A DNA stretch of 64,000 nucleotides, taken from positions 2,963,154 through 3,027,153 of the forward strand of contig OY969804.1 in NCBI GenBank assembly GCA_963703275.1, in the 5' to 3' direction. Below the pieces are notes generated by a model. That model had not been told where the DNA came from. It was given only the letters and a program-made list of their open reading frames with translations, and did no database searches. This DNA comes from an uncultured Actinomycetes bacterium (GTDB lineage Bacteria; Actinomycetota; Thermoleophilia; Gaiellales; JAICJC01). The position numbers and the translations under genes are program-made. Within the stretch, counting starts at the first letter, position 1. Each line of letters opens with the position of its first letter. Positions 12,957 to 18,000 of the stretch are shown here, piece after piece.

Positions 12957-13029
12957 GCCCTCTTAGCTCAGTTGGTAGAGCACTTCCATGGTAAGGAAGG
13001 GGTCAACGGTTCGAGTCCGTTAGAGGGCT
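12957..13029 (+). tRNA. tRNA-Thr (anticodon GGU)
   Basis: 73-nt cloverleaf folded by hand: acceptor GCCCTCT/AGAGGGC, D stem GCTC/GAGC, anticodon stem CTTCC/GGAAG with loop ATGGTAA, T stem AACGG/CCGTT with loop TTCGAGT. CCA is not encoded. Confidence 0.9.
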
Positions 13030-13063
13030 TGGGTGTTTTCGGCGTGGTTGCGGGGAATGCGGC
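12987..13063 (+). repeat. direct repeat copy 1 (tRNA-Thr 3' half plus about 34 nt downstream), attL-like
   Basis: Matches 17923-18000 in the same orientation. 41 of the first 44 positions are identical by hand alignment, followed by the shared GTTTTCGGC. Confidence 0.75.
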
Positions 13064-13176
13064 TCCTCGCGAGCGGGGATGGCAGAGCCGCTCGGGGCCG
13101 GTGGGGGCATACTGGGGGCACGAGCGCGGCTTTTTCAGGACCGTGGATCCTCGACTCCGAGGGTTCGGGCGTGTCA

Positions 13177-13400
13177 TACCCCGCCGTTGTGGCTGGATCG
13201 TCTCGCTCCGCCGACGGATCGCTCAGCTGAACTCTTGGAGGCCATTCGACGCCCCCAGCTAACGCCCGTCGTACCGTCGAGGGGGTGACCCACACCCCAG
13301 CGATCCTGCGCCGGTCGGCGGAAGCGCTGCCACTCACCGACCTCCACCGCCAGCCCAAGGGCAGTCAGCGTGTCCACATCGCGCCGATCCAAAGTGTGCG
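13177..13400 (-). pseudogene. possible IS110-family transposase C-terminal remnant
   Basis: Minus-strand translation DVDTLTALGLAVEVGEWQRFRRPAQ...GVGHPLDGTTG resembles the (I)TA..L.AE(I/V)GD..RF ... GL.P....SG motif of IS110 transposases. No N-terminal domain and no start codon. Confidence 0.3.
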
Positions 13401-13467
13401 AGCGGGGCTGGATGAGCGTGGAGTCGCGGGAGCCAGGGTTTGCGTGTGTCCGGTACGATCCGGACGC

Positions 13468-15138: not shown

Positions 15139-15823
15139 ATGCGCTCCCGGCTCGCGACCATGTGGGCTCGGTTGGGCTGGGTGCCTGGGCCGGTCTGGGC
15201 GGGGTTGGTGCTGGCGGCTCTCGAATTGGTCGCCTTCTGGCGACCGCTGACCGGAGGCGGCGTCCTGTCTGCCGCCACGGCCACGTTCGGTTCACTTCTT
15301 CAGGATCACGGGCGCCAATCGTCGGGTACTCGACGCCCTCAGCGTCCGTTACATTCTGACGCGTCCTGGCGCCAGAGCGCCGTCGCTGCCCGGGTTTCGC
15401 ATCGTCTGTCGAGGCCGCGATGCCACCGTGTTCGAGAATCTGTGCGCCTGCCCCCGAGCGTTCGTCCCGGAACGGAACGGCACCGTCGTGTTCGTGCACG
15501 ACGGCGATGGGACGGTGGCGCTGGCGGCGCGGATGCGGCGTGCGGGGACGGTCGTGCTCGCCGATCAGTTCGCGGCGGGGTGGGGCGTGTCGGTCGACGG
15601 TCACACCGCCCGCCCGCTCCGGTACGACTCGGTGCTCCGCGCCGTGGCCGTGCCCGCCGGGAGGCATCGGATTGTGTGGCGCTACCGCACCCCCGGCCTG
15701 ACCACCGGAACCGTCATCAGCCTCGCCGGGCTCATCCTTGCCGCAATCTGGCTGGTAGCGCCGTGGCGCCTGTTCGTCGGTCGGAACACGGATCGGTTCG
15801 CCGCTGCGCTGAGGTTGGAGTGA
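15139..15823 (+). pseudogene. YfhO-like (GT-C type) membrane glycosyltransferase remnant with internal deletion and frameshift
   Basis: Frame 1 (15139 to about 15290) encodes an N-terminal TM segment (LVLAALELVAFWRPLTGGGVL). Frame 2 (about 15302-15823) encodes a typical C-terminus: VLDALSVRYIL, GWGVSVDGHTARPLRYDSVLRAVAVPAGRHRIVWRYRTPGL, final TM. About 230 codons remain; my recollection is that intact family members are several-fold longer. Confidence 0.5.
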
Positions 15824-15861
15824 GTGGCTAAAACCGCCGCCTCCTCTGCGCGTGTCCAATC

Positions 15862-17721
15862 GTGCTCCAGTGCCGTACTGGTGGAATGCACTCGATGCTG
15901 AGGCTCCGATCGTTCCGACCGGCCGTGGTTGAGGGGGTGGCGTTCGTCGCCGTGGCCGCGCTTGCGACGGTGTACGCGGAGCGCCAGATCCTGTTCACGC
16001 CCCACGTCTATCAGAGCGATGCTCTCCTGCTCGAGTACTGGATGCGGCAGTTCCAGGATCCGCGGTTGTTCACCGATCCCCTCACGCGCGCCCTCGTCCA
16101 CACGGGGTACGTGCCGTTCGGCATACGGGGCCTGTACCTGGTTGCAAGCTACGTGATGGAGCCCATCCGCTTCGGAGCGTGGGCCGCGGTGGTGGTGGCC
16201 CCGTTCTCCGCCTGGCTGGTGTTCCGGATCATCCGCGAGCACACCGCGTGGATTCCCGCGGCGTGGCTCGGTGCCGCGCTCTTTCTCCTGCCCTGGAGCA
16301 CCGAAAGGTTCAGCGGCACTCACGCCAGGGCGTTCGCACAGCCGATCGTCCTTCTGACCCTCTACCTTGTCCTCCGGAGGCGGATCCGATGGGCAGCCGT
16401 GGTACCTCCGGTGGGAGCGTTGCTCTACCCGCCGGCGTCGATCCTCGCGGCCGGGGTACTGGCGGCCTCCGCGCTCGGCCGACACGGACGCCGGCCGACC
16501 ATCGACCGCAGGCTCGCCACGATGGCAGCGGCGTCCGTCTCGGCGGTGCTGGTGGTGCTCTTGACCCCCCGGCTGGCCGGACTGCCCACAAGCCATCTGA
16601 TCAGCGCGTCAGCGGCTCGCCACTACCCCGAGTTCGGCCCCCACGGGCAGATGGTCTTCTTCCGAAAGTCCGTCTGGCAGATGCTCAAGGGACGCTATTC
16701 AGGGTTCGACCTCAAGGCGGCCGGTAGCGTGCTTCTGACCGCGACCGTCGTCACGCTCGCGCTCCGACCGAAAAGCGTGCGGCTTGTACGGAAAGAGGTC
16801 TGGGCGACGGCGGCAGTCTCACTGATCCTGTTCGGCCTGAGCTGGGCAGTGCTGTTCCACCTGTACCTTCCGAACCGCTACACCTATCCGCTGACACCCG
16901 TCTGGTGCATCGTATTAGGCGTGTGCTGGAGACCGACATGGCACGCACTCGCGCGTCGCATGGGCACGCTGTCGTTGGCAACAGTTGCGGTTGTTCTGCC
17001 CGCCGCCATCGTCTGGATCGGCGTCAGGTGGCTAAAACTCGGGCCCCAACTGTCTCTGACCGGGACCCGGCGCCTGCTGGATAGCGGAGCCGGGACCCTC
17101 ATCTCGTCCGCGCTCATCGGGGTGGCGCTCTGCGTCGCCGCGATCCTCCGGAAGCGCCGGAGCAGGACGCGTCGCTCGCTCGTGGCACTTGGATGCACAA
17201 TCTTCTCGGGAGCTGTGCTCGTCGGCGCCGTCACGGGCGCCGGCGGCGGACGGGACTCCATCGTGTGCGGCCAGCCGCGACTGCAGGCCTACCTGCGATC
17301 GCTTCCAACGGACGCGATCATCGCCGGTGACCCGGTGAAGCTCGACTGCGTTCCCATCGAATCGCTGCGCGCAGTCGTCATCTCGAGAAAGCTCTACCAG
17401 CCGGTCGACGCGAACTACCTGAAGGTCATCCGACCGCGCATGTTCGCGATGCTGAACGCGTATTACGGAGCTTCTCGGCAGGCGATCGCCAATCTGTACT
17501 CTCATTACGGAGCCGACTATCTCGTCGTCCAGCGGTCGCTTCTGACCGCCCGTAGGGCGCTTCCCGCCTACACGAACATGGCGCCATTCGAGAAGCTGAT
17601 CAACACCTTGCTCACCAAGAGCTCCACCCGGGCCGCGCTCAGCCTGCCCGCCACCTGCGCCACCTGGAAACACGGCGAGGTCACCGTCTATGAACTCCGG
17701 TGCGTCAGCCGTTCCCGCTGA
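15862..17721 (+). CDS. polytopic membrane protein with C-terminal extracytoplasmic domain (possible GT-C-like)
   Basis: 619-aa ORF with at least 10 hydrophobic segments followed by a soluble tail of about 150 aa. No motif I can name. True start may be an internal Met. Confidence 0.55.
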   Translation: MLQCRTGGMHSMLRLRSFRPAVVEGVAFVAVAALATVYAERQILFTPHVYQSDALLLEYWMRQFQDPRLFTDPLTRALVHTGYVPFGIRGLYLVASYVMEPIRFGAWAAVVVAPFSAWLVFRIIREHTAWIPAAWLGAALFLLPWSTERFSGTHARAFAQPIVLLTLYLVLRRRIRWAAVVPPVGALLYPPASILAAGVLAASALGRHGRRPTIDRRLATMAAASVSAVLVVLLTPRLAGLPTSHLISASAARHYPEFGPHGQMVFFRKSVWQMLKGRYSGFDLKAAGSVLLTATVVTLALRPKSVRLVRKEVWATAAVSLILFGLSWAVLFHLYLPNRYTYPLTPVWCIVLGVCWRPTWHALARRMGTLSLATVAVVLPAAIVWIGVRWLKLGPQLSLTGTRRLLDSGAGTLISSALIGVALCVAAILRKRRSRTRRSLVALGCTIFSGAVLVGAVTGAGGGRDSIVCGQPRLQAYLRSLPTDAIIAGDPVKLDCVPIESLRAVVISRKLYQPVDANYLKVIRPRMFAMLNAYYGASRQAIANLYSHYGADYLVVQRSLLTARRALPAYTNMAPFEKLINTLLTKSSTRAALSLPATCATWKHGEVTVYELRCVSRSR

Positions 17722-17922
17722 ACGAAGGACTCGTCCGCGTTCCGACTTTCCGACGTCCGCAGAGCATCCCAAACGGAGGCGCTGAGTGCGGCGCCGTGGG
17801 ACGCCCCATGCAAGGCTGCCTTCGGTGCAGCCGTCCTTGTACCTCCAGGCGCCGCGGGTCATCCCGTATATCGCCAGGCGCTGGAGCAACTCCGGTGAGA
17901 CGCCGTGAGACCCCAAAGCGCC

Positions 17923-18000
17923 CATCGTAAGGAAGGGGGCAACGGTTCGAGTCCGTCAGAGGGCTTCCTTGTTTTCGGCTTTGTTGAGCGGATTCACGGC
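17923..18000 (+). repeat. direct repeat copy 2 (decayed tRNA-Thr 3' half), attR-like
   Basis: CATCGTAAGGAAGGGGGCAACGGTTCGAGTCCGTCAGAGGGCTT starts in the anticodon loop. The T stem is now mismatched, so this is not a functional tRNA. Confidence 0.75.

Follow-up and report, generated by a model that had tools for sequence, protein, structure and literature searches.

A tRNA-Thr gene and a displaced copy of its 3′ half flank an integrase-free, partly broken glycosylation operon: a probable attachment scar in an uncultured Thermoleophilia bacterium

In a stretch of 64,000 nucleotides from an uncultured Actinomycetes bacterium (Thermoleophilia; Gaiellales; GenBank assembly GCA_963703275.1, contig OY969804.1, positions 2,963,154 to 3,027,153; the whole stretch is hereafter called the window), an intact tRNA-Thr gene with the anticodon GGT (12957..13029, plus strand; ARAGORN; Rfam RF00005, 67 bits) is followed 4.9 kb downstream by a decayed copy of its own 3′ half. 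The gene is the only tRNA detected in the window by ARAGORN and Rfam, and its sequence is 100% identical in two conspecific loci, L084 and L085, and in L081, a locus from a lineage that is ~94% identical. The two copies form a 71-nt direct repeat. The proximal copy (12986..13056, plus strand) comprises tRNA positions 30–73 and the 27 nt downstream of the gene, including GTTTTCGGC, and the distal copy (17922..17992, plus strand) matches it at 61 of 71 positions (86%), in the same orientation and 4,936 bp away. According to frame analysis of the G+C content at third codon positions (GC3) and Pfam, the enclosed 4.9 kb consists of a non-coding spacer, a gene for a glycosyltransferase–methyltransferase fusion, a YfhO-family pseudogene and a gene for a 608-aa membrane protein. 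Here, we argue that the repeat is probably an attachment (att) scar left by an integrase, with the intact gene as the regenerated target on the attL side and the distal copy as the displaced tRNA-Thr 3′ fragment on the attR side, and we weigh whether the DNA between the copies is what remains of the integrated element.

An earlier note on this DNA, made from the letters alone, had described the 3′ half of the tRNA as directly repeated 4.9 kb downstream, with 41 of the first 44 positions matching and a shared GTTTTCGGC following them, and the alignment bears out each of these points. The repeat does run from about 12987 and 17923 as the note had it, but the outer ends given there, 13063 and 18000, are ~7 nt too generous, as similarity ends at 13056 and 17992. 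Relative to the proximal copy, the distal copy carries three substitutions in the 44 tRNA positions and seven in the 27 downstream positions (20/27 match). The former lie at tRNA positions 34, which turns GGT into CGT, 47 and 65, the last of which disrupts a T-stem pair, and the distal copy is not recognised as a tRNA by ARAGORN or by Rfam at E ≤ 1. When the tRNA is parsed by hand, the repeat is seen to start at position 30, 2 nt ahead of the anticodon loop, which, judged by sequence, would be the classic edge of a displaced tRNA fragment. On both sides of the 71 nt, local-alignment scores fall within the shuffle range, so the repeat is sharply bounded.

A repeat search of 12000–20000 returned the 71-nt pair as the single long direct repeat. 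The 40-nt core of the repeat recurs with two mismatches, and a chance repeat is excluded because none of 100 dinucleotide-preserving shuffles matched this core. Neither a third copy of the 3′ half nor any copy of the 5′ half of tRNA-Thr is found on either strand of the window. Two alternative layouts were considered and rejected: a larger island ending further to the right, as the repeat has no further copy anywhere in the window, and an island 5′ of the tRNA, in the GC-rich left block, as the window holds no 5′ tRNA fragment. A history that involves no integrase appears improbable to us; in it, the distal copy would be what is left of a local tRNA-locus duplication, or of a second tRNA-Thr that a deletion cut short. 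Duplication of tRNA genes is common, and the CGT anticodon and the decayed T stem of the distal copy would suit a former second gene. However, the truncation falls exactly at the edge of the anticodon loop, the missing 5′ half is nowhere in the window, and the two copies have 27 nt of non-genic sequence downstream in common, which would not be expected of separate isoacceptor loci. A target duplication made by a transposon can be set aside, the repeat being far too long for it at 71 nt.

The non-coding spacer between the tRNA and the operon (13030..13467, plus strand; 438 nt), a candidate arm of the element if the segment is an island, gave no Pfam match in any frame at E ≤ 1. A structured RNA in this conserved spacer was considered and rejected, given no Rfam match at E ≤ 1, an RNA folding z-score of 0.22 and the 12 changes tolerated in L085. 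The first gene of the operon (13468..15132, plus strand) encodes a 554-aa fusion of a family-2 glycosyltransferase (GT2) of the polyprenyl-phosphate sugar synthase type (Pfam Glycos_transf_2, 3e-12) with a class I methyltransferase (Methyltransf_23, 8e-21). The fusion also shows weak NCBIfam similarity to AglJ, to a dolichyl-phosphate hexose transferase and to PpgS, all under the equivalog cut-offs, and its GT2 part is predicted to load a sugar onto polyprenyl phosphate. Next lies the pseudogene of a YfhO-family GT-C glycosyltransferase (15139..15823, plus strand), in which the first 51 codons (15139–15290) run out of frame into the C-terminal part (15293–15823). Alignment blocks against L081 and a further relative, L082, whose full-length YfhO genes encode 765 aa and 758 aa, respectively, break at 15290/15293, where ~1.62 kb is missing internally and the frame is shifted. 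The sole Pfam match of the short open reading frame (ORF) that is left (15428–15823) is to the last 49 positions of the YfhO profile (787–835 of 835), and the remnant also matches the C-termini of PgfM1 and PgfM2 in NCBIfam.

The third gene (15895..17721, plus strand) encodes a 608-aa integral membrane protein that has no Pfam match, although some of its homologues carry PF19830. Its AlphaFold2 model, built from a 37-sequence alignment, has a predicted local distance difference test score (pLDDT) of 86 and a predicted template modelling score (pTM) of 0.86, and the best Foldseek matches of the model (DPY19, STT3/AglB/PglB, ArnT and AftA; E 7e-6 to 3e-3) all have the GT-C fold. The protein is thus confidently modelled as a GT-C fold glycosyltransferase, predicted to depend on a lipid-linked sugar. 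Its family is made up of widespread membrane proteins of ~600 aa that are annotated as hypothetical. The interval is a long-resident and partly broken cell-surface glycosylation operon. Between 13030 and 17921 no gene for a small flippase of the GtrA/GtcA type was found, and promoter and terminator scans of the region gave counts at background level. The cluster is typical of the clade and also occurs in contexts without a tRNA, in L082, L091 and L092. In two of these, L082 (4355–5365) and L092 (8941–9957), it is joined by a gene for an LPG_synthase_TM protein, which is missing beside the tRNA in the window and in L081; this protein could be the missing flippase-like component of the glycosylation system.

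The earlier note had found no integrase, excisionase or phage ORF between the copies, and this holds under database searches. The Pfam scan of the ORFs in the interval detected no gene of these kinds, and none was found at E ≤ 1 in 8 of the 12 six-frame translations of the two gaps (all six frames of 13030–13470 and frame 0 of each strand of 17700–18075). Similarly, phmmer searches with the integrase and the excisionase-like protein of L085, which are described below, returned nothing from the stop-to-stop reading frames of 40 aa or more, in all six frames of the window.

The same cannot be said of composition. The bracketed DNA had been called AT-richer, and the G+C content does drop at the tRNA, from about 0.71–0.74 to about 0.65–0.67. 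However, the sliding profile shows no step at the distal repeat and no recovery at 18000, the values remaining at 0.64–0.69 to ~59000. The interval has a G+C content of 0.667, compared with 0.675 for the whole window, 0.646–0.662 for the right flank and 0.712–0.720 for the left flank; the two points used for comparison in the note (8581–8640 and 42001–42060) both come from unusually GC-rich genes. GC3 is 0.78–0.82 in the interval, 0.75–0.85 in right-flank genes and 0.88–0.94 in left-flank genes. Further, the tetranucleotide distance of the interval from the window mean equals the median, 28 of 60 windows of equal size being more deviant. By the sliding G+C, GC3 and tetranucleotide measures, the interval is not a compositional island; the outlier is the left block. 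This block spans ~1500–12950, with a G+C content of 0.71–0.73 and a GC3 of 0.88–0.94 against about 0.66 and 0.75–0.85 elsewhere. It holds a MarR–major facilitator superfamily (MFS) gene pair, the closest relatives of which (79% or less) are non-syntenic and belong to Gaiellaceae and Thermoleophilia metagenome-assembled genomes (MAGs).

The last gene of the GC-rich left block (12259..12918, minus strand) encodes a 219-aa helix-turn-helix protein with weak AbiEi_4 similarity (Pfam 1.7e-5). It is kept beside the tRNA in L081, and in L085 the excisionase-like gene and the integrase stand in its place; the AbiEi-like protein and the excisionase-like protein are unrelated. On the right, the first gene (18071..19180, minus strand; Pfam Virul_fac_BrkB, 5.6e-51) encodes a membrane protein of the YihY/BrkB family, 369 aa long in L084, which would presumably be the original downstream neighbour of the tRNA if the segment is an island. 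Between the operon and this gene lies a lineage-specific junction segment of 295 bp (17752..18046) that holds the distal copy. The junction is present in all conspecific assemblies that reach it and is not found in the ~94%-identical relative.

Conspecific loci from six assemblies (L084/L094, L085, L086 with L096, L087, L093 and L095), 98.7–99.9% identical to the window, cover the interval wholly or partly, and all six assemblies share its arrangement at the covered parts. Both repeat copies are seen in L084/L094, L085, L093 and L095, and all conspecific loci that extend across 15290/15293 have the YfhO deletion. The description of the segment as fixed and eroded is supported by the same arrangement in every covering assembly and by the ~1.62 kb gone from YfhO. 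In one assembly, ERZ25039497, the contigs L086 and L096 abut exactly at 15290/15293, which hints at strain heterogeneity at the deletion. The empty site that the note had suggested looking for did not turn up in this small sample of relatives: the conspecific loci are all occupied, and L081 has the cargo without the fragment. A scan of a genome collection with the left-flank MFS transporter yielded 80 loci from Gaiellaceae, Thermoleophilia and Solirubrobacterales, with at most 79% identity, no synteny and no tRNA-Thr, and is uninformative on an empty site. By protein similarity, the nearest named relatives belong to the Gaiellales/Thermoleophilia.

L081 has the same left flank, tRNA, spacer, GT2–methyltransferase gene and GT-C gene as the window, together with the full-length YfhO gene. 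Its homology ends at window position 17751, 30 bp past the stop codon of the GT-C gene, and the right flank beyond is unrelated. The BrkB orthologue of the same assembly lies on another contig, L083, where homology starts only at 18047 and no tRNA fragment is found. The junction is thus limited by two synteny breakpoints. About 1 kb past the BrkB region, L083 continues with the window block 25686–31084, so that 18047–25685 is inverted between the lineages. The inverted block, which carries genes for BrkB, a holin-like protein, a DUF3618 protein, a DJ-1/PfpI protein and anti-sigma/STAS proteins, is inverted relative to 25686–31084. No repeats above the shuffle range join the endpoints of the inversion, and protein-level comparison of the window with the right flank of L081 or with the 1-kb linker of L083 gave noise and paralogue matches only. 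In none of L083, L088 and L089 does the BrkB orthologue adjoin a tRNA-Thr; in the more distant L088 and L089 it continues with other genes. The note would have taken the same gene order without the repeat in all relatives as a refutation of its island. In L081 the left and central gene order does lack the repeat, which fits that condition in part, but this is one relative only, and it is rearranged at exactly this point.

One strain, L085, does have an integrase at this tRNA. Over 12955–29178 this strain matches the window with 99.77% identity, and its homology stops 2 nt before the 5′ end of the tRNA. In place of the 1–12954 side of the window, an excisionase-like gene and a tyrosine integrase gene (L085 16224–18276) abut the tRNA-Thr 5′ end. 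The former encodes a 91-aa HTH_17 protein with excisionase-family similarity (Pfam E = 4.9e-4, PHROG_66 E = 3e-3), and the latter a 464-aa tyrosine recombinase that matches the PHROG_1 integrase profile (E = 1.5e-23) over residues 48–455 of a 508-aa reading frame. The integrase also has weak Pfam and NCBIfam matches to the catalytic C-terminus, and the R, HxxR and Y motifs are visible in its sequence. It is a singleton in a collection of 5.8 billion proteins, with no relatives in 2.9 million viral contigs, two weak ones in metagenome contigs and a Streptococcus phage integrase as its one distant match. An attP site on a virus was considered and rejected, as the core pattern of the repeat does not occur in the 2.9 million viral contigs. 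The L085 element points to tRNA-Thr serving as an integration site in this population.

Two traces of exchange are also seen around the tRNA. In L085, the first 50 nt past the tRNA have seven differences from the window and resemble the distal copy more closely (90% vs 86%). Further, 673 nt (12783–13455) show zero substitutions between the window and L081, with about 6% divergence on both sides. Included in this tract are 45 codons of the left-flank gene as well as the tRNA and the spacer, and L085 has 12 changes in it. Because it extends over codons of the neighbouring gene, it seems to reflect recent recombination between the lineages rather than constraint.

With an integrase element beside the tRNA, the segment could be imagined as a still mobilisable, integrase-less cis-mobilisable element (CIME) whose att sites are recognised in trans by an integrase like that of L085. 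We regard this as very improbable. Integration and transfer genes are absent and yet both copies are kept in every conspecific assembly covering them, the L085 integrase and excisionase-like genes abut the tRNA to give a tandem-like order of element, tRNA, segment and fragment, and the proximal repeat of L085 is nearer to the distal copy, as if the sites had exchanged sequence. However, identity between the two sites is only 86%, with a difference inside the anticodon loop, and no excised or empty variant occurs in any assembly examined. Moreover, the integrase of L085 is found 5′ of the tRNA, and the segment goes back at least to the split from L081. Carried a step further, tRNA-Thr would be a two-sided integration hotspot, with a rare tyrosine integrase element on the 5′ side and the glycosylation segment on the 3′ side as a hitch-hiking, cis-mobilisable partner, a surface-glycan cargo moved or deleted by that integrase. 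Islands with a 5′ tRNA fragment are a minority layout, accounting for 159 of 3,919 mapped islands (PMC4383910), and we would give such an arrangement the least credence of the histories discussed here. If true, it would represent an actinobacterial equivalent of the serotype-conversion modules that phages carry at thrW.

The reading that we favour begins with the scar. That the repeat is an att scar left by an integrase has, in our estimate, a probability of about 0.8. The att footprint proposed in the note stands by its side, orientation, boundary and extension past the gene end. Among precisely mapped tRNA and tmRNA islands, 3,760 of 3,919 have the 3′-fragment layout and 2,083 sites are anticodon-centred (PMC4383910), and the tests of the Islander approach find the same here: an intact tRNA and its cognate fragment on one replicon, the 3′ fragment downstream in the same orientation, and an anticodon-centred edge. 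A tyrosine-integrase element would have recombined with tRNA-Thr at the anticodon-loop position. The element's own look-alike 3′ half would have regenerated the gene, leaving the displaced original 3′ fragment as an attR-type scar. As similarity stops at +27 and no spacer follows the fragment, an edge of attP/attB homology fits; a native tRNA with its spacer would have left spacer there. Further, the tRNA part of the repeat is better kept than the downstream part, as expected if the copy on the element mimicked the gene.

That the interval is itself an eroded, ancient, fixed and integrase-less element from that insertion is, to us, an even bet (about 0.5). The integrated DNA would comprise the spacer, the three-gene lipid-carrier glycosylation operon and 170 bp at 17752–17921, and the original downstream chromosome would be made up of the fragment, the 55 bp beyond it and the BrkB gene. 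The operon is found elsewhere without a tRNA, and in L082 it lacks the spacer, with homology to the window starting only at 13424, just upstream of the first gene; it therefore evidently reached the tRNA as a block, the spacer being of other origin. The event would be old, no younger than the split from the ~94%-identical relative, with the integration genes since gone, YfhO decayed and the segment fixed, and three substitutions in 44 unconstrained tRNA positions of the fragment fit an integration of at least that age. L081 would have lost the distal site by a later rearrangement. Since the inversion of 18047–25685 leaves the adjacency of operon and fragment untouched, an ancestor arranged like the window needs fewer events than the gain of a 295-bp filler. 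Of the island proposed in the note, then, the att footprint stands and the visibly foreign 4.9 kb does not; that the scar-making element brought the operon in as its cargo is something we infer.

Several observations weigh against this reading. No integrase remnant is found in the junction or the spacer, the interval lacks a foreign compositional signal, and no empty site, with the tRNA joined to BrkB, occurs in the conspecific assemblies, L081/L083, L088 or L089. The anticodon loop of the distal copy contains a mismatch, at a place where identity would be required for strand exchange. Just one integrase was seen at this tRNA; it is a singleton located 5′ of the gene, and no link between it and the repeat can be made. 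L081 has no tRNA fragment in the next 10 kb, and its left flank, tRNA, spacer and operon are ~94% identical to the window, like the surrounding core genes. The operon was accordingly inherited vertically together with the tRNA, and the loss of attR in the L081 lineage is an assumption.

The state of L081 can also be explained if the scar is genuine but stems from another, lost element, the spacer and operon being native beside tRNA-Thr and the 295-bp junction having been brought in by a rearrangement in the lineage of the window. Although unlikely, this alternative deserves to be taken seriously. It accounts directly for a relative that has the tRNA, spacer and operon without the fragment at core-like ~94% identity, and for the absence of foreign composition. 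Further, the fragment lies in lineage-specific DNA exactly between the breakpoints 17751/17752 and 18046/18047, beside the inversion, and with its CGT anticodon it could derive from another tRNA-Thr locus. However, it requires the coincidence that a fragment of this very tRNA, together with 27 nt of downstream sequence, landed 4.9 kb away in direct orientation. A fragment displaced from a native locus should also carry spacer past +27, which it does not. Moreover, the window contains neither a 5′ half nor a second tRNA, and no repeat links the endpoints of the inversion.

The locus serves as a worked example that a tRNA-fragment repeat does not by itself mark out foreign DNA. The genes between the copies are native in composition, were passed on vertically from before a divergence of ~6% and are partly pseudogenised, despite the probable integrase footprint that surrounds them. 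For the annotation of soil MAGs, tRNA-Thr(GGT) can be marked as a recombination hotspot on the basis of the integrase element of one strain, the exchanged tract of 673 nt and the adjacent inversion. In addition, a predicted function class, GT-C glycosyltransferase, can be assigned from the structural model to a widespread and uncharacterised family of 600-aa membrane proteins. No new mechanism is opened by these observations, as tRNA att scars and integrase-less islets are of a well-known kind, and this one is an ordinary genomic relic.

Four kinds of known systems offer a comparison. Like the tRNA islands mapped by Islander (PMC4383910), the locus has an intact tRNA, a cognate 3′ fragment in the same orientation, an anticodon-centred edge and a repeat that extends past the 3′ end of the gene. 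Unlike those islands, it has no integrase inside, and so fails the integrase filter, its repeat is 86% rather than near 100% identical, and neither a foreign composition nor an empty site is known for it. It is the kind of decayed islet that Islander-type pipelines deliberately discard. CIMEs, as described in Streptococcus, are defined by intact att sites and by shown mobilisation by a cognate integrative and conjugative element (PMC6323972). The segment resembles them in lacking integrase and transfer genes and in being flanked by att-like repeats at a site that integrase elements also seem to use. It differs from them in that its copies have diverged to 61/71 with a mismatch in the anticodon loop, and in that no cognate element was identified and no mobility seen.

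In its organisation, the locus recalls gtrABC of the serotype-converting prophages of Shigella and Salmonella, which sits directly beside attP, the 46-nt att core there extending from the anticodon loop to the 3′ end of thrW, a tRNA-Thr gene (PMC3636060). In both cases, a lipid-carrier glycosylation module with a GT2 and a membrane transferase lies beside an att site in tRNA-Thr. The window segment, however, has no phage genes, no int or xis and no flippase of the GtrA type, its high-G+C host is unrelated, and none of 50,697 phage records matches the 608-aa protein. The resemblance to gtrABC is best regarded as an analogy of organisation, not as membership. As for the operon itself, it is similar to the multi-component transmembrane glycosylation systems of Gram-positive bacteria (CsbB/GtlA with GtcA and YfhO/GtlB, and Pgf; PMC8035078, PMC7389260) in pairing a cytoplasmic GT2 with extracytoplasmic GT-C enzymes, one of them of the YfhO type. 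Compared with the CsbB/GtcA/YfhO and Pgf systems (PMC8035078, PMC7389260), its GT2 is fused to a methyltransferase, its YfhO gene is a pseudogene, the segment carries no small flippase gene, and a second, uncharacterised GT-C protein stands beside the YfhO remnant.

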